A DNA stretch of 64,000 nt from a phage. The stretch's first letter is position 1. The number at the start of each line of letters is the position of its first letter. The notes below the pieces were generated by a model, which made no database searches, was not told where the DNA came from, and saw only the letters and a program-made list of their open reading frames with translations. Shown here piece by piece: positions 48,866 to 64,000 of the stretch. The translations under genes and the position numbers were made by a program. The DNA is taken from assembly GCA_019897865.1 (NCBI GenBank), contig GCA_019897865.1_4532.1. One strand, given 5' to 3'.

Positions 48866-49162
48866 TTAGATTACGATCTTTTTAGGAACGTCATCTGTAT
48901 TCTGCACGGCAGGGGTTTCTTCTTCCATAGCTTCATAATGTTCTTCTAACCATTCTTCTACTTGCTCTTTAATAGCTTTAGCTGCTTGGAAGCGGAGAGG
49001 TTTTGCTGCATCCTTATCATTAACAAGTTCAACAATATACCGCATAGCTTCTAAATAATGCTCTGCAAATAATTCTTTTACACTTGCTTGCGCCGCATCC
49101 ATTGCGTAAATCTGTTGCATTTCGGCTGTTGGTCTTCCACGACCACGTTTTAGTTTAGGCAT
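48866..49162 (-). CDS. Small DNA-binding-like protein with AT-hook-like motif (monocistronic unit)
   Basis: 98 aa; N-terminal KRGRGRP motif; own promoter (TTGACT-17-TAAGAT at 49212..49184), strong AGGAGG RBS, own terminator. Confidence 0.45.
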   Translation of the reverse strand: MPKLKRGRGRPTAEMQQIYAMDAAQASVKELFAEHYLEAMRYIVELVNDKDAAKPLRFQAAKAIKEQVEEWLEEHYEAMEEETPAVQNTDDVPKKIVI

Positions 49163-49234
49163 AATAAAATCCTCCTAAACTTTATCTTAACATATAAAAA
49201 ATAATAAGTCAAGTTTTATTCAATAGATAGCAAA

Positions 49235-49260
49235 AAGCCTCCAATAAGGAGGCCAATAAA
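49235..49260 (-). terminator. Rho-independent terminator at the end of the tRNA array
   Basis: GCCTCC-TTATT-GGAGGC hairpin followed on the - strand by TTTTTGC. Confidence 0.55.
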
Positions 49261-49369
49261 TACTGTTAATTTGAAATGCTTTATTATGATTGTGCGTTAA
49301 GGAGTCGCACCCCTCCATCTTAGAAGGAACCAGGCAAGGTCTTCAAAGATACCACTGGCAAGCGATATT

Positions 49370-49448
49370 TGGAGGCGGGAATTGGATTTGAACCAATGAT
49401 CTCCAGCATATGAAACTGGCGAGGACGACCAAACTCCTCTATCCCGCT
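49370..49448 (-). tRNA. tRNA-Met (anticodon CAT); initiator/elongator/Ile-lysidine not resolved
   Basis: Hand-folded cloverleaf: T-arm ATTGG-TTCAAAT-CCAAT, anticodon loop TTCATAT, encoded CCA; A1-C72 mismatch at acceptor top. Confidence 0.6.
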
Positions 49449-49454
49449 ATTATG

Positions 49455-49526
49455 TATCCCGTGCTGGATTCGAACCAGCGTCACAAGAAATTGTGGATCT
49501 CTTATCCTGTAAGTCTAACGGGAAAC
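49455..49526 (-). ncRNA. tRNA-like element (canonical T-arm and acceptor, no canonical anticodon arm)
   Basis: T-arm GCTGG-TTCGAAT-CCAGC and near-complementary acceptor strands, but the central region forms CACAA-TTTC-TTGTG instead of a 5-bp/7-nt anticodon arm. Confidence 0.3.
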
Positions 49527-49600
49527 TGGTTGTTTCGACAAGAATCGAACTTGTGTCTCACGATTATCAGTCGTGGGTTCTACCATTGAACTACGAAACA
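49527..49600 (-). tRNA. tRNA-Ile (anticodon GAT)
   Basis: Perfect cloverleaf: acceptor TGTTTCG/CGAAACA, D GTTC/GAAC, anticodon stem CACGA/TCGTG with loop CTGATAA, T-arm ACAAG-TTCGATT-CTTGT, encoded CCA. Confidence 0.75.
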
Positions 49601-49606
49601 TTTAAT

Positions 49607-49683
49607 TGGTCGGAATTGCAGGATTCGAACCTGCGACCCTACGCTCCCAAAGCGTATGCTCTACCAAACTGAGCTAAATTCCG
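49607..49683 (-). tRNA. tRNA-Pro (anticodon TGG)
   Basis: Acceptor CGGAATT/AATTCCG, D GCTC/GAGC, anticodon stem TACGC/GCGTA with loop TTTGGGA, T-arm GCAGG-TTCGAAT-CCTGC, CCA. Confidence 0.75.
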
Positions 49684-49688
49684 TTATA

Positions 49689-49764
49689 TGGCTGGTCTGT
49701 CTGGATTTGAACCAAACCTACGACAGTCAAAGTGTCGTGTGCTACCGGACTACACTACAAACCA
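49689..49764 (-). tRNA. tRNA-Gln (anticodon TTG)
   Basis: Acceptor TGGTTTG/CAGACCA (U1-A72, G73), anticodon stem CGACA/TGTCG with loop CTTTGAC, T-arm TTTGG-TTCAAAT-CCAGA, CCA. Confidence 0.7.
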
Positions 49765-49862
49765 ATAAATCATTTAATGAAGGGCAACCAGAAGAGGTGT
49801 GAGAGAAGGAGAAAACCATGAGTAAAAGAGAAAGTTTTCTGGCAACCCTTTATTAAATAATT

Positions 49863-49936
49863 TGGAGCGTTCTACGAGGATCGAACTCGTGCCGCCGACT
49901 TGGAAGGACGGAATGCTACCGCTACACCAAGAACGC
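49863..49936 (-). tRNA. tRNA-Gly (anticodon TCC)
   Basis: Acceptor GCGTTCT/AGAACGC, anticodon loop CTTCCAA, T-arm ACGAG-TTCGATC-CTCGT, discriminator U, CCA; one mismatch in anticodon stem. Confidence 0.65.
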
Positions 49937-49947
49937 CCTACATCTTT

Positions 49948-49977
49948 ACTATACTACATTTTACTATTGATTGTCAA
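49948..49977 (-). promoter_or_regulatory. Promoter (CTATTGACAA family) for downstream tRNA block
   Basis: - strand CTATTGACAA with TTGACA at 49977..49972, about 18-bp spacer, TATAGT; ends about 12 nt before tRNA-Gly. Confidence 0.5.
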
Positions 49978-50250
49978 TAGTTTTATTGAGTGGGACAGTG
50001 ACGAGTATCCCATTGGGTGACTAGCCCTACGTTCGGTAAGCTAACTTAAAATAATACAAAACCAAAGTCAAATATTATTCTTCGTTGCTGTCGATGGGAG
50101 AGCCGCTTCTTCTTTTGCCCCATCCAACCCTACTCCGGTCAAGTTTCAGGTAACTCTTTTTGTGATCAACACAATACTAAGAACACTGTCTTTCGAACAG
50201 ACCTTGTGCACAGGATACGACGATCAATCACAGTGCCCTTAATGTTGTGT

Positions 50251-50325
50251 TGGTGCTCCCACTCTGAATCGAACAGAGATCCACGGATTACAAAACCGTT
50301 GTAATAGCCATTATACTATAGGAGC
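50251..50325 (-). tRNA. tRNA-Thr (anticodon TGT)
   Basis: Acceptor GCTCCTA/TGGGAGC, anticodon loop TTTGTAA, T-arm CTCTG-TTCGATT-CAGAG, A73, CCA; loop-closing pair mismatched. Confidence 0.6.
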
Positions 50326-50331
50326 AAAGCT

Positions 50332-50408
50332 GGGACTCGGCAGGATTCGATACCTGCAATTCCAGAAGCCTCTTGGCGACTGGGGGTTTACCTTAACTCT
50401 ACAAGTCC
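50332..50408 (-). ncRNA. tRNA-like element with extended central hairpin in place of the anticodon arm
   Basis: Good acceptor (GGACTTG/CGAGTCC) and T-arm-like GCAGG...CCTGC (8-nt loop), but middle forms CCAGTCGCC-AAGA-GGCTTCTGG; no CCA. Confidence 0.3.
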
Positions 50409-50415
50409 ATAATTC

Positions 50416-50501
50416 TGGCGATGAGTATAGGATTTGAACCTATATCGTTCTTTCGAACACGGATTAACAGTCCGCCGCTTAAACCATTCAGCCAACTCAT
50501 C
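50416..50501 (-). tRNA. Class II (long variable arm) tRNA with anticodon GTT (Asn codons)
   Basis: 86 nt: acceptor GATGAGT/ACTCATC, 3-bp D stem, anticodon stem GCGGA/TCCGT with loop CTGTTAA, variable arm GTTC-GAAA-GAAC, T-arm ATAGG-TTCAAAT-CCTAT, G73, CCA. Confidence 0.55.
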
Positions 50502-50507
50502 TTAATT

Positions 50508-50595
50508 TGGTGGTGAGTGATGGAGTCGAACCACCCGAATCGCAATGATAACAGATTTACAGTCTGCCCCGCTACCCCTACGGAATTAACTCACC
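50508..50595 (-). tRNA. tRNA-Tyr (anticodon GTA), class II
   Basis: 88 nt: acceptor GGTGAGT/ACTCACC, anticodon stem GCAGA/TCTGT with loop CTGTAAA, long variable region, T-arm GGTGG-TTCGACT-CCATC, A73, CCA. Confidence 0.65.
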
Positions 50596-50725
50596 TAAAT
50601 ACTAATATTTAAATTCTTTTTAAAATAGCCAGTGTTCACACCACTAACTATGATTTATCGGTAAGATGGTGGGGGCCATCTGCCGAAAGTTTACTCTATT
50701 AAAGTAAGCCATATTAAAAAGAACT

Positions 50726-50811
50726 TGGCGGTAGATGTAGGACTCGAACCTACACGCCGTTTCCGACTACAGTTTAGCAAACTGTCGTGGCTACCATTTC
50801 ACCAATCTACC
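50726..50811 (-). tRNA. tRNA-Ser (anticodon GCT), class II
   Basis: 86 nt: acceptor GGTAGAT/ATCTACC, anticodon stem ACAGT/ACTGT with loop TTGCTAA, variable arm GTCG-GAAA-CGGC, T-arm GTAGG-TTCGAGT-CCTAC, G73, CCA. Confidence 0.7.
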
Positions 50812-50816
50812 TAATC

Positions 50817-50907
50817 TGGCGGAAGGAGGGAGAGTCGAACTCCCAAGGCTCTTTCAAGCTCGGCGGTTTTCAAGACCGTTTTCGTCGCCACGTCGATTTG
50901 CCCTTCC
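50817..50907 (-). tRNA. tRNA-Ser (anticodon TGA), class II
   Basis: About 91 nt: acceptor GGAAGGG/TCCTTCC, anticodon loop CTTGAAA, variable arm GCTT-GAAA-GAGC, T-arm GGGAG-TTCGACT-CTCCC, G73, CCA. Confidence 0.65.
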
Positions 50908-50911
50908 ATAC

Positions 50912-50945
50912 TTATAATCTAACATAAAATAATGTTTGTTGTCAA
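50912..50945 (-). promoter_or_regulatory. Promoter (CTATTGACAA family) for the tRNA-Ser block
   Basis: - strand CTATTGACAA (TTGACA 50945..50940), 18-bp spacer ...AAACATTATTTTATGT, TAGATT, then tRNA-Ser about 9 nt downstream. Confidence 0.5.
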
Positions 50946-51141
50946 TAGTTTTTTAAAACATTTTACCATGAATGGTGACTCCACCAACCCCCGTTCTCCA
51001 CGAACGGTGCTCTTCGAGCATTTATGTCTTCTAATATAACCGTGGCCTTTGTTTATAATGTCTGACATATTTGCCTCATTCTCTGCCACCATGATCAGTA
51101 GTGGGTTCAAATCACTTGAGCTAATTCATGTTAAAATGTTC

Positions 51142-51216
51142 TGGTGTCTTTACAAGGAATCGAACCTTGACTAAGAGTTTAGAAGACTCCTGTGCTATCC
51201 ATTACACCATAAAGAC
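51142..51216 (-). tRNA. tRNA-Arg (anticodon TCT)
   Basis: Acceptor GTCTTTA/TAAAGAC, D GTGT/GCAC, anticodon stem GGAGT/ACTCT with loop CTTCTAA, T-arm CAAGG-TTCGATT-CCTTG, CCA. Confidence 0.7.
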
Positions 51217-51218
51217 TT

Positions 51219-51293
51219 TGGTGGCCCTGGCTGGTTTCGATCCAGCTACCTATCGGTTATGAGCCGACAGCTCTCCCATTGAGCTACAGGGCC
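51219..51293 (-). tRNA. tRNA-Met (anticodon CAT), elongator-type; unusual T-loop ATCGAAA
   Basis: Acceptor GGCCCTG/CAGGGCC, D GCTC/GAGC, anticodon stem GTCGG/CCGAT with loop CTCATAA, T-arm GCTGG-ATCGAAA-CCAGC, A73, CCA. Confidence 0.65.
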
Positions 51294-51497
51294 ATAAATG
51301 TGGTAACAGAGACGCTGACGATTGTAGAGAACCGCTACATTCTCTAAGACCAAGCCCAACTTTCAGCGTAAAAGTTCTTGAGCCGAGACTATTCCTTTTC
51401 CTCTTTGGTAGCTAACCTCTGAAGAAGTAGTCTCTAACACTACCGCAGTGCAAGCCCCTCTTAACAAAAGTCAACGACCCTGTTACCACACTTGATG

Positions 51498-51532
51498 AAC
51501 GTATCCTAACATATGAAGGATACGTTTGTCAA
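51498..51532 (-). repeat. 29-bp near-perfect palindrome abutting a third CTATTGACAA motif
   Basis: AACGTATCCT-aaCATATGa-AGGATACGTT (10-bp arms, 51498-51526) directly next to tgtcaa (51527-51532); about 200 nt upstream of tRNA-Met. Confidence 0.5.
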
Positions 51533-51539
51533 TAGTTAT

Positions 51540-51788
51540 TTAAGCATATTCTGCTACTTCTTCACTATCTTTCTTTTCCAGAAGAGCAACAACCAAAGCT
51601 TCTGCGTTAAAAGTGTTAATTTCAAGATCCATCTCTCGCATCAGAGCCAAGAAATCAATAACTTTAACATCTTTAGTTATTACAATAGAAGTTGTACCAT
51701 TGTTTTCAGATGTGTATTTTTCTGGATGGAAAAGAAAAACTGCATTGCCGTTACCATCTTCAAACACGTGTTTTTCTAATAGAGACAT
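51540..51788 (-). CDS. Hypothetical protein (82 aa)
   Basis: ATG at 51788 preceded by AGGAGG (5-nt spacer); the track ORF 51540..51854 is probably an N-terminal over-extension. Confidence 0.5.
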   Translation of the reverse strand: MSLLEKHVFEDGNGNAVFLFHPEKYTSENNGTTSIVITKDVKVIDFLALMREMDLEINTFNAEALVVALLEKKDSEEVAEYA

Positions 51789-51796
51789 TGTTCCTC

Positions 51797-52048
51797 CTAA
51801 TCTGTTAGTTGTTCGTCCTCTACCAAGTTTGACACGAGAACGTCTGTTATACATTGATGCTGATAAACCCTTTCGGGACTATCATCAAAAGCCAAACCTG
51901 TGCAAATAGAACAGAGGTCTGATTCCTTGATGACTCCATTTTTATCACGTCTGGAGTGGTTTGTCAAATGCCTATTACAAGCACGGCACCTAAAATAAAA
52001 GCTATTTTGCATATATCCTTCGAACCCCAAATGGGGAGTGATCGGCAT
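51797..52048 (-). CDS. Small zinc-ribbon protein
   Basis: 83 aa with CRAC...CSIC; stop adjacent to RBS of the next gene. Confidence 0.45.
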   Translation of the reverse strand: MPITPHLGFEGYMQNSFYFRCRACNRHLTNHSRRDKNGVIKESDLCSICTGLAFDDSPERVYQHQCITDVLVSNLVEDEQLTD

Positions 52049-52085
52049 CTCCTCACTTCTAGTTTAGCACGAAGGATATCTTAAG

Positions 52086-60843: not shown

Positions 60844-61722
60844 ATGTTTGTAAAATCTTTTAAATCCGCTCTGCCTATGGTTGTTGGTGACAATGCTTCT
60901 GTAGCATCCCTTAACAGCATTACAGATATTCCTCTGGAATTTGTAACAGCAGAAGGCTCCCAGTCACACACTATCGGTCTTGTTCGTTTCGAAGATGACT
61001 CTAAATTTGTAAAAGAGTTTTCAGATCTTGAACTGCTTAATGTAGGTCAATCTGTGAAGAAGGTAGATAAAAAGAAAGTTAAACGTATTCTGAATGAACG
61101 TCTAGAAGAAATGCGTCAGGACATGGAGAGCGAAGGTAAAGAGTTTTATGTCGATAAAGAAGTAGTCAAAGCAATGAAAGAAGATATTGAATTTGCACTA
61201 TTGCCTGAAACAGAACCTGAAGATTTCTTTAACTATGTTGTCTTGGATAAAACTACGAATCTTCTTTATGTTCTTAATGGAAGTAAAAAGGTTGCAGAAG
61301 AGATTACTTCTTTCCTCCGTTCCGTCCTGGGGACTTTCCCTTCGGTAGGTTTTAGTGTGCACGAAGAAGCTATTGTAAAAGGTTTTGGTGAATTGCTGGA
61401 GAATCACGAAGCAGATCGTATTACTCTCGGAAATTATATCAAAATGGAGGATAGCGAGGGCGTTGTTGTTTGGAGTAAAGAATCTCTATACGAGTCTAAA
61501 GCTGTCGAACTAAAAGAAGATGGTAAAGATGTTGTTGCAATCGGTCTTGAATATGACGGTGTTGTAGATTTTGTAGTGGATAAAGAGTTTAAACTTTCTA
61601 AACTACGTTTTCCGAAATATTTTGCAGACGAAGAAGGTAGTATTGAAGCTTCAGTCCTTCTGTGCTTCAATGAGATTCGAGGTCTGATGGAAGATTTAAC
61701 CAAAGCAACAATCCTTAAATAA
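60844..61722 (+). CDS. RdgC-like recombination-associated protein
   Basis: 292 aa; ...NLLYVLNGSKKVAEEITSFLRSVLGTFPSVGFS... parallels E. coli RdgC ...[34 protein letters not shown]... Confidence 0.6.
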   Translation: MFVKSFKSALPMVVGDNASVASLNSITDIPLEFVTAEGSQSHTIGLVRFEDDSKFVKEFSDLELLNVGQSVKKVDKKKVKRILNERLEEMRQDMESEGKEFYVDKEVVKAMKEDIEFALLPETEPEDFFNYVVLDKTTNLLYVLNGSKKVAEEITSFLRSVLGTFPSVGFSVHEEAIVKGFGELLENHEADRITLGNYIKMEDSEGVVVWSKESLYESKAVELKEDGKDVVAIGLEYDGVVDFVVDKEFKLSKLRFPKYFADEEGSIEASVLLCFNEIRGLMEDLTKATILK

Positions 61723-61726
61723 GTTC

Positions 61727-61755
61727 TTGACTTGCGGGATTAGTTATGATATTAT
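61727..61755 (+). promoter_or_regulatory. Strong sigma70-like promoter
   Basis: TTGACT (61727-61732), 17-bp spacer, TATTAT (61750-61755). Confidence 0.6.
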
Positions 61756-61784
61756 GCCTACCTACTTAATGAGGTAGGCTTTTT
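61756..61784 (+). terminator. Rho-independent terminator overlapping the promoter discriminator/+1 region
   Basis: GCCTACCT-ACTTAATG-AGGTAGGC (8-bp stem) followed by TTTTT, immediately before the AGGAGG RBS of the next gene. Confidence 0.6.
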
Positions 61785-61794
61785 AGGAGGCGTT

Positions 61795-62004
61795 ATGAAA
61801 AAGATTCTGACAGTCGTTCTTTTAGCTTTTAGTTTCACAGTAGCAGCAGGTCAAATTACTTTAATCTTGTCTGATTCTGAAGTTAATGGCAACACAAAAT
61901 ATTGCTACTATTCTAACGCTAACCAAGATGAAGTTATAGCAATCCCGAAAAGTCGTCAATGTCCGTATACTAAAACATTCTCAACAGAGGATGACGATGA
62001 ATAA
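61795..62004 (+). CDS. Small secreted protein (signal peptide)
   Basis: 69 aa; N-terminal MKKILTVVLLAFSFTVAA signal-peptide-like; acidic C-terminus; AGGAGG RBS. Confidence 0.55.
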   Translation: MKKILTVVLLAFSFTVAAGQITLILSDSEVNGNTKYCYYSNANQDEVIAIPKSRQCPYTKTFSTEDDDE

Positions 62005-62445
62005 TTAGGGGGAAATATTAGCGGTTATATTTTAATTAAACCTGAAGATCTTCATTTATATGTCAACGAAGAAACAATAGCTGCAATTGATTATGATCAG
62101 ATCGCTTTCCAAGCAGCGTCTGCATTAGAGAAAAGAACAATCATTGCGAAGCACATCCCTTCAGGTGCTCAAAAGGAATTTAAAAATAAGACAGAGTTTT
62201 GGGGTAAAAGCAAGACTAAAATTGGAGGTTGGCTAGGAGATACAAATGCAGAAAGAGCCTCCAAAAACAAACGTCCCTTCACAAAGGAAGAGTTCGAAAT
62301 CATTGATAAGCAATATCCGCCAGAAGATATCGGACACACCTTCCAAGCAGCTAAAACAAAAGTCTTAGGTATTCTAAAACATCTACGTTTAGAAAAATAT
62401 TGCGGAGTTATTGGCGTAGGAAAAACTTTCAGACACGCCTTCAAA

Positions 62446-63135
62446 ATGCCTGTAGAATATAAATCTGAACGATTAGATATCAAACCACTCCAGCTTTCAG
62501 AAACCAAAGATTATCTTGTGGAGTTCCACAATGGTGATGTTGTTACTGTAATAGAAGCTGATGATGAGTTAGAGAAGTATGGTTTCCAAGGTTATAAAGA
62601 TTATAAAAGGACGGGTAAATTTTCTTATATCGTTGTATCTATAGATAAAGATAGTTTACATACTCCTAGTATCCTTTTTAATTTCTACAAAGAGGATGGA
62701 GTATTTAAAAATCCAGATATAATTCTTATTGACGAGTCTATTGGCGACATATGGATCGTAGATAAAGGTAAAAAGAAAGAAGTTAAAGGTTGGGGCAGTT
62801 ACTGGTTAGCATATCAGATGCTAATGGGAGATAAAACAGATAGTATCCGACCTTATCAAGATTTTGATATTAAGTTCGGAGATATTACTTGTTTTAATCT
62901 TCTTTCAGCTTGTAAAACTCAAGCAGAACTTTTCCAAACAGTTAAAGATACTTACTACTCATGGTTCCCAGATGGTGTTAATTTTACTTCTTGGGATGGA
63001 GAAGAAGTCCATATGACAACAGATGAATGGATAGAAACAATTTTCCAGTTGGTATACATGAAACGCTGGGATAATGACGATACAACATTTGAGAGTATGC
63101 TTCAGTCATACATCTCGCAACAGGAGGCAGAGTGA
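62446..63135 (+). CDS. Hypothetical protein; frame stays open upstream to 62005 with no canonical start
   Basis: First in-frame ATG at 62446 has no RBS; the same frame is open from 62005, directly after the TAA of the secreted-protein gene, with a GGGGGA SD-like element at 62007-62013. Confidence 0.4.
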   Translation: MPVEYKSERLDIKPLQLSETKDYLVEFHNGDVVTVIEADDELEKYGFQGYKDYKRTGKFSYIVVSIDKDSLHTPSILFNFYKEDGVFKNPDIILIDESIGDIWIVDKGKKKEVKGWGSYWLAYQMLMGDKTDSIRPYQDFDIKFGDITCFNLLSACKTQAELFQTVKDTYYSWFPDGVNFTSWDGEEVHMTTDEWIETIFQLVYMKRWDNDDTTFESMLQSYISQQEAE

Positions 63136-64000
63136 GCAGATTAACAGAAGAGCAGAAAGCAGATATCCTTAGTATGAGTGCAGAGGGTATGTCTTCTCGC
63201 AATATTGCAGCAATTGTTTTAGGTAGTCCAACAAGAAAAAGCACAGTGAACGATTTCCTTGCACGATTCGGAGCAAGTAAACAAGAGCCAGTTAAAAAGA
63301 AACAACCAGTTATTAAAATTATTGATGTTGAAACTGCACCAGAGATTGCATATACTTTCCGTCGATTCAAAGCCTTCATTTCTCCAGATCAAGTAATTCG
63401 TAGGGGTTATTTGTTATCTTACTCTTCTGCCGACCTGTATACTGGTGAAGTGGAAGGTAAGAACTTGTCTTCTTATCCTCTTTTTGATATTGATCATACA
63501 GATGATTGGGAGCTTTGCCAAGATCTTTGGAACCTTCTGAATGAGGCAGATGTAGTTGTGGCACACAACGGATATAAGTTTGACCGTGCATACATTAACC
63601 AACGATTTGCATATCACGATATGGCTCCTCCTTCTAATTATGTAGTTGTTGATACATTGAAGGCAGCTAAGAAACAATTTGCACTTCCTTCCAACTCCCT
63701 TAAAGAAATGGGAGCATATTTCGAAACAGAAAGTGAAAAACTGGATAACGAGGGGTTCCCTTTATGGAAAGCATGTTGTGAAGGTGATCGTGATGCTTTT
63801 GAACGTATGCAGATTTACAATGATGGTGATGTTGTTTCGCTCCGTGATTTGTATATGAAAATCCTTCCGTGGATTCCACAGCATCCTAACTTATCCGCTT
63901 ATTACACAGATGAGAAGGTCCGTTGTTCTCGTTGTGGCAGTGATCACGTTCACGTTGTTACTGGTAAACAATACCACACTGCGGTAAGTTCTTTCGATAT
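63132..64000 (+). CDS. DnaQ-like DEDD 3'-5' exonuclease with N-terminal HTH-like region (partial, 3' end beyond window)
   Basis: Exo I VIKIIDVETAP, Exo II VVVAHNGYKFDRAYI, Exo III YNDGDVVSLRDLY; putative GTG start at 63132 after AGGAGG; runs off the window. Confidence 0.55.
   Translation, partial: MSRLTEEQKADILSMSAEGMSSRNIAAIVLGSPTRKSTVNDFLARFGASKQEPVKKKQPVIKIIDVETAPEIAYTFRRFKAFISPDQVIRRGYLLSYSSADLYTGEVEGKNLSSYPLFDIDHTDDWELCQDLWNLLNEADVVVAHNGYKFDRAYINQRFAYHDMAPPSNYVVVDTLKAAKKQFALPSNSLKEMGAYFETESEKLDNEGFPLWKACCEGDRDAFERMQIYNDGDVVSLRDLYMKILPWIPQHPNLSAYYTDEKVRCSRCGSDHVHVVTGKQYHTAVSSFD

Follow-up and report, generated by a model that had tools for sequence, protein, structure and literature searches.

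A FEN-type 5'-3' exonuclease gene in a Phapecoctavirus-like phage, probably translated from a near-cognate AUU start codon

The window analysed in this work was a stretch of 64,000 nucleotides of phage DNA (GenBank assembly GCA_019897865.1, contig GCA_019897865.1_4532.1), which matched in reverse complement Escherichia phage vB_EcoM_Schickermooser (Phapecoctavirus, Stephanstirmvirinae), with 100% identity over 61700-63300. Near the end of the window, positions 62017-63135 (plus strand) very probably constitute one gene of 372 codons plus TGA for a flap endonuclease (FEN)-type 5'-3' exonuclease, translated from the near-cognate codon AUU at 62017; the proposal of this ATT (62017-62019, plus strand) as the initiation codon draws on the alignment of homologues, the codons used in the clade and one existing annotation, that of phage ESCO13. 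In nearly all GenBank/RefSeq records the gene is called as a truncated coding sequence (CDS) of 229 amino acids (62446-63135, plus strand), named “putative exonuclease” or “hypothetical protein”.

The stop codon TAA at 62002-62004 closes an open reading frame (ORF) of 69 amino acids (61795-62004), and from 62005 on the same frame continues through 376 sense codons to a TGA at 63133-63135. The earliest ATG, GTG or TTG in this open frame is the ATG at 62446, its codon 148. A Shine-Dalgarno (SD) sequence, AGGGGGA (62007-62013, plus strand), is followed by AAT and by the in-frame ATT, with an aligned spacing of 4 nt between the last G (62012) and the ATT; 12 nt, or 4 codons, separate the TAA from the ATT. 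A sequence-only reading of the window had pointed out the TAA, the open frame, the ATG at codon 148, the GGGGGA and the ATT, and re-reading of the sequence bore out all of these coordinates, together with the statement that the ATG lacks a ribosome-binding site (RBS): no SD was present upstream of 62446 (cacgccttcaaaATG). The same reading had left four options unranked: non-canonical initiation at the ATT behind GGGGGA, readthrough of the TAA, a nonsense mutation or sequencing error, and a product starting at 62446. Comparative evidence supported the first of these and went against the other three, as described below.

The absence of a canonical start was evaluated by scanning the window for stop-to-stop ORFs with 150 codons or more, of which there were 47. 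The open frame at 62005-63135 was the outlier, with 147 codons before its first canonical start; the next-longest pre-start stretches (88, 68 and 57 codons) were, by their coordinates, in ORFs that face longer ones of the opposite strand, and no other long ORF without a canonical start was found in the whole-window scan. Stops occurred at 0.085 per codon in the non-coding frames of the window, giving P ~2e-6 for 147 open codons, and ATG, GTG and TTG together made up 4.8% of internal codons, giving P ~8e-4 for their absence from 147 coding codons. The start-less stretch is more than chance.

A tblastn search with the 376-amino-acid translation matched 1213 phage records, 901 of which covered at least 80% of the query, and the matches often started at query residues 1-20. 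Compared with seven relatives, codons 2-143 showed a proportion of non-synonymous differences (pN) of 0.16-0.26, and a proportion of synonymous differences (pS) that was saturated, at 0.67-0.80; given this saturation, the ratio of non-synonymous to synonymous substitution rates was computable for some pairs only, and the raw pN and pS were used instead. The region 5' of the annotated methionine (Met144 of the 372-residue protein) is therefore, from these codon differences, under purifying selection.

A homology and structure search of the open-frame translation, which had been proposed as a check, gave a match to PHROG 107, “exonuclease” (residues 10-367, E 1.4e-55), and a confident FEN-type model. 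A Pfam scan of the 376-amino-acid translation gave one sub-threshold, irrelevant match and no match to PF02739 at E <= 0.1, and phmmer of the protein against PDB sequences gave no match. Homologues scored 24-28 bits against PF02739, below the gathering cut-off of 34.3, and these matches started well upstream of the position equivalent to Met144. The window protein is, on these profile matches, a divergent FEN branch, captured by PHROG 107 rather than by Pfam. T5 D15, T4 RNase H, E. coli ExoIX and the 5' nuclease of Pol I are of the same FEN class, the family of PF02739 and PF01367, but the window protein is about 100 residues longer, with insertions, and shares 10-20% identity with them.

The AlphaFold model of the 372-residue protein from 62017 had a mean predicted local distance difference test score (pLDDT) of 95.6, was ordered from about residue 5, and showed the FEN fold, with a PIN-like nuclease core and a helical module for DNA binding. 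A profile of 36 homologues aligned the motifs FRH..YK, EADD, DKD and GDxxDN with the 5' nuclease of Taq, a marginal match (E 0.07) used for the motifs alone. Eight acidic residues, candidates for metal-binding carboxylates as conserved in the FEN family, were invariant in the 36 sequences (D25, E180, D182, D183, D210, D212, D272 and D275), as was R139; both D25 and R139 are encoded 5' of Met144. D25, positioned at the end of the strand formed by residues 16-25, may be the equivalent of the first-strand aspartate. Four strands of the model core (E16-25, E39-46, E93-100 and E127-137) are all upstream of Met144, and the 229-amino-acid CDS would lack them together with D25 and R139; therefore, its product, without much of the modelled fold, is not expected to be a functional nuclease. 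The Met encoded by ATG 62446 is replaced by Leu in two relatives (P0018 and P0020). Homologues holding just an ATG-initiated gene equivalent to 62446-63135, with a non-conserved upstream region, had been named by the sequence-only reading as the contrary case, and the opposite was seen, with the upstream region conserved and the Met variable. Positions 62017-63135 thus read as a genuine and complete flap endonuclease gene of a phage, coding for 372 residues.

The position of the start was located by comparison of 81 loci, gathered from GenBank phages, IMG/VR, metagenomes and Logan/ENA contigs, each of which was walked upstream from the homology to an in-frame stop. Distant homologues with ordinary starts had N-termini that align no more than one residue from 62017: GAGGAG-TGAGTA-ATG-G-Y-P in CR3-like phages, GTG-G-Y-P at the aligned start in KB57 and phiTE, and GGAGG-GTCT-TTG-S-R-E-Y-P in rV5-like phages, the window counterpart being GGGGG-AAAT-ATT-S-G-Y. 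By our own reading of SD positions, most starts in the outgroups were GTG or TTG. The clade to which the window belongs comprised 22 distinct start-region sequences, from genes whose proteins are 50-100% identical to that of the window. All 22 carried GGAGG, or GGGGG in the case of Phapecoctavirus and L028, 4-5 nt before the aligned codon. This codon was ATT in nine (the window, phAPEC8, Justusliebigvirus/ESCO32, L070, L033, L039, L026, L075 and L076), ATC in eight, ATA in four and CTG in one, and ATG, GTG and TTG were absent from it in 22 of 22 clade sequences. Four loci (L063, L064, L066 and L032) carried an in-frame TAA immediately 5' of the ATC; therefore, the ORF cannot begin earlier in them. 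In a neighbour-joining tree the near-cognate clade was monophyletic save for one nested TTG sequence (L077, 47% identity), and several independent codon switches were visible (by inspection, not by a parsimony count). Within Phapecoctavirus, 61990-62050 was 100% identical in 54 of 65 records.

The geometry of the start region was that of ordinary genes of this phage. Among the 39 window genes with a 5-mer SD, 38 had a spacing of 4-9 nt and 18 had 4 nt, the mode; by eye, the neighbouring genes share the 4-nt spacing (GGAGG-CGTT-ATG at 61795 and AGGAGG-CAGA-GTG at 63132). GTG or TTG starts were used by 16 of 75 window genes. The locus hence shows a coding region 5' of the canonical starts, an SD at a usual distance and a start position conserved among orthologues, as in near-cognate starts. 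In the lineage of L070 and L033 (65% identity, approximately 1189-1204) the SD and spacer read GGAGGATGTT-ATT, and the SD is immediately followed (spacing 0) by an ATG in another frame, from which a short ORF, about 18 codons long, runs into the beginning of the exonuclease gene.

Initiation at AUU-type codons is already established, for infC and pcnB and, with GTC, for Streptomyces sigR. In E. coli reporters, AUA, AUC, AUU and CUG give 1-2% of the expression from AUG and the other 57 codons 0.1-1%, and infC and pcnB, both AUU, are the only confirmed non-canonical E. coli starts (Hecht et al., bioRxiv 10.1101/063800). The four codons of the clade are exactly this second-tier near-cognate set. 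In the proposed mechanism, AGGGGG (62007-62012) would position the ribosome at the commonest spacing of the phage, 4 nt, and the initiator fMet-tRNA would read AUU, so that the protein would start Met-Ser-Gly-Tyr. Synonymous sites were saturated, yet ATG was never seen, which suggests that the weak codon is maintained by selection; it may be kept to hold nuclease synthesis low, a low output being potentially beneficial, as a flap/5' exonuclease could be harmful in excess. The strong SD, probably together with the upstream ORF stop 12 nt away, would partly offset the weak codon. Expression would be expected to be sensitive to initiation factor 3 (IF3), as at infC.

Some points weigh against this interpretation. 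ATT, ATC and ATA all encode Ile, and their conservation alone would also fit an internal Ile; what argues for a start is the presence of flanking stops, the geometry of the SD, the CTG found in one sequence and the starts of the outgroups. Some minor initiation may take place at the in-frame ATT codons 62029 and 62035. The only indication of selection against a strong start is that ATG, GTG and TTG are absent from 22 sequences with saturated synonymous sites. The literature yielded no N-terminus or ribosome-occupancy data for this protein, and the start was described in no paper found on non-canonical or ATT phage starts, on the start codon of Phapecoctavirus or on ESCO13.

The ATT start had already entered one database annotation. 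ESCO13_00118 (AQM50955.1; KX552041.2 / NC_047770.1), which is this gene with no difference in the start region, is annotated from ATT as a 372-amino-acid “putative exonuclease” with an RBS feature; this is a database annotation only, and the genome announcement is silent on the ATT start. Among the 60 listed of the 65 Phapecoctavirus records, an exonuclease CDS extended over the ATT in the two ESCO13 copies only, the others being annotated from a canonical start further downstream. Of four records inspected directly, NC_048196, phAPEC8 and Ro121lw carried the truncated 229-amino-acid gene and ESCO13 the full gene. Justusliebigvirus ESCO32, from the same group as ESCO13, showed a milder truncation, to a downstream canonical start.

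Among the alternatives, the one that survives best concerns the route to the same codon. Ribosomes finishing the 69-amino-acid ORF could be retained on the mRNA by the SD and begin again at the AUU, de novo 30S initiation being minor; this termination-reinitiation is possible as the main route, though rather doubtful, and with the same start codon and product it is a variant of the mechanism, not an exclusive alternative. In the clade members inspected, 8-18 nt separated the stop of the upstream gene from the start codon, this stop often overlapping the SD as TAGGAGG, and the tight spacing was kept in L026 with a methyltransferase as the upstream gene; the 69-amino-acid ORF has a strong SD of its own and a promoter-like site, and the gene following the exonuclease is also coupled, through a GTGA overlap. 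Reinitiation near stop codons, at non-canonical codons as well, is documented in E. coli (PMC2268962; PMC4648390). However, tight gene spacing is usual in phages and was also seen in the outgroups with ATG, GTG or TTG, so it does not discriminate; reinitiation in E. coli is still under IF3 and initiator-tRNA checks (PMC2268962); and the conserved strong SD suggests a self-sufficient recruitment of ribosomes.

A more speculative extension of AUU initiation would make the near-cognate start a regulatory device in Stephanstirmvirinae-like phages, FEN synthesis being tied to start-codon proofreading (IF3 availability or ribosome state) with a stage-dependent FEN output; this was judged improbable.

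Initiation at another near-cognate codon downstream of 62017 (ATT 62029, ATT 62035 or ATA 62077) is very unlikely. Several in-frame ATT/ATA codons do occur within 20 codons, and the first four residues of the model are outside regular secondary structure, but these codons are at least 16 nt from the SD, beyond the 4-9 nt used by 38 of the 39 window genes with a 5-mer SD, 62017 is where homologues with canonical starts have their aligned N-termini, and a start-competent identity (ATT, ATC, ATA, CTG or TTG) is kept clade-wide at the 62017 position only.

The N-terminal region might also be a relic (pseudogene, nonsense mutation or sequencing error), only the 229-amino-acid product being made, as annotated in NC_048196, phAPEC8, Ro121lw and most other records. 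This is extremely improbable: the arrangement is shared without change by 54 of 65 independent genomes and is conserved down to 50% protein identity, the N-terminal codons are under purifying selection, and the homologues match PF02739 from well upstream. A nonsense mutation or sequencing error, as contemplated in the sequence-only reading, does not agree with an arrangement kept across the whole clade; nor does a product from 62446 agree with a Met that becomes Leu in relatives, the lack of an SD at this ATG, and a fragment deprived of the four core strands, D25 and R139.

Readthrough of the TAA at 62002-62004, giving a 447-amino-acid signal-peptide/exonuclease fusion, was suggested by the two ORFs being in frame in the window and by a 444-amino-acid fused homologue (P0005) in the protein database, but is scarcely credible, as the ORFs are in different frames in ESCO32/L062, L028, L068 and L074 (stop-start gaps of 8, 11, 8 and 16 nt), a pair of in-frame stops divides them in L063, L064, L066, L032, L070, L072 and L019, the upstream gene is a different one in L026, and the export of a DNA-replication nuclease by a signal peptide would be biologically senseless. 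The emphasis initially placed on the single in-frame TAA thus fell on a coincidence of this genus, the frame relation being lost in at least four relatives, and the fusion was discarded. The predicted RNA fold of 61975-62065 had no significant structure (z = -1.19) and so gave no evidence of a structural switch or of a readthrough/bypass element.

The fused homologue P0005 was put down to an artefact of gene calling: a Gln of the protein corresponds to TAG in the underlying DNA (L025), and translation of this gene did not reproduce the query. At L025 1501-2835 (Logan contig SRR30397360_28145) the caller used a TAG-recoded code, fusing the secreted ORF and the exonuclease, and was apparently pushed to it by the missing canonical start.

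Translation from AUU by a gene of this kind resembles that of infC (IF3) and pcnB (poly(A) polymerase I) of E. coli, in which AUU is likewise the sole near-cognate start of an ORF of essential length with a functional SD; IF3 discriminates against near-cognate start codons (PMC2268962; bioRxiv 10.1101/063800). Unlike these genes, the window gene encodes a phage nuclease and not a translation factor, no autoregulatory loop is evident, its orthologues alternate between AUU, AUC, AUA and CUG, and the case is built on sequence comparison. In Streptomyces, the GTC start of sigR is repressed through IF3 (PMC5472188). The likeness to sigR is a conserved non-canonical start as an IF3-sensed translational throttle, an IF3 dependence that would be expected here too; the differences are the codon class (GTC), the organism and the regulator gene.

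Well-supported non-canonical starts are few among genes of bacterial systems. What is new here is the clade-wide pattern, most probably shared by a whole phage subfamily, the interchange among four near-cognate codons, and a truncated product which, in the model, loses much of the fold. Orthologues that swap four near-cognates, and never ATG, across saturating divergence amount to a natural experiment, and the pattern points to selection for keeping a nuclease that may be toxic under a start that is weak or sensitive to IF3. In metagenomes, gene callers truncate the N-terminus of this protein arbitrarily, and one adopted a TAG-recoded code; calls of the P0005 type are a source of false “recoded phage” signals. 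The remedy for annotation is to allow ATT, ATC, ATA and CTG in start models where an SD and homology support them.

The genes around the exonuclease probably form one operon. A sigma-70-like promoter (61727-61755, plus strand; TTGACT-17 nt-TATTAT with a TG extended -10), which has 10 of 12 consensus matches and is a consensus match only, would drive the 69-amino-acid ORF, the FEN gene and the DnaQ-like exonuclease gene that follows. Directly adjoining its -10 element, a terminator-like hairpin (GCCTACCT...AGGTAGGC then TTTTT; 61756-61779, plus strand) closes the rdgC-like gene that precedes it; NC_048196 carries a terminator annotation here as well. The junction (61727-61779, plus strand) is compact, with the near-consensus promoter set against the hairpin of the rdgC-like gene; RNAs initiated at this promoter would begin within the 5' arm of the hairpin and therefore escape termination.

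The upstream 69-amino-acid ORF (61795-62004, plus strand) belongs to PHROG 4641 (function unknown) and has a Sec-type signal-peptide-like N-terminus and two Cys, both conserved. The C-terminus of the homologous ORF (…QCPYTKTF…) was found just 5' of the FEN gene in many closer relatives; in the L026 relative a methyltransferase gene takes its place.

The window also encodes several tRNAs. One of them, tRNA(CAU) (49370-49448, minus strand), has an A1xC72 mismatch atop the acceptor stem and an encoded CCA in the ARAGORN drawing and, by eye, an A11:U24 pair, but is without the three anticodon-stem G:C pairs. These three pairs are checked by IF3. The G2-G6 acceptor sequence and A11:U24 were taken, by eye, to resemble those of the E. 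coli initiator tRNA-fMet. In Justusliebigvirus JohannJBalmer, where the gene is annotated as tRNA-fMet, positions 1 and 72 are again mismatched (C1xC72), and the T-stem changes among relatives are compensatory. The tRNA could be a phage initiator-like tRNA and might act together with the near-cognate start, a link to the AUU-start gene that is speculative. Its best database matches were 98.7% identical, no record in the collection reaching 99%, despite the 100% identity to Schickermooser over 61700-63300; the D-loop has C in four aligned relatives versus T in the window (GAGTTTGG versus GAGTCTGG).

Rfam, at gathering thresholds over 49000-64000, gave nothing except tRNAs, among them an eleventh tRNA at 50511-50595 (minus strand; 39 bits vs. 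a gathering threshold of 29) which was not reported by ARAGORN and sits inside the tRNA cluster 49370-51293.

Downstream of the FEN gene, a DnaQ/RNase H-like exonuclease gene (63132-64000, plus strand, running off the window end; PF13482, E 7.6e-10) is annotated as a DNA polymerase exonuclease subunit. It starts at a GTG that shares bases with the stop of the FEN gene (GTGA, 63132-63135), with AGGAGG 4 nt upstream. In some records (Ro121lw) the start of this gene is placed later, at locus position 2975, which corresponds to window position 63174.

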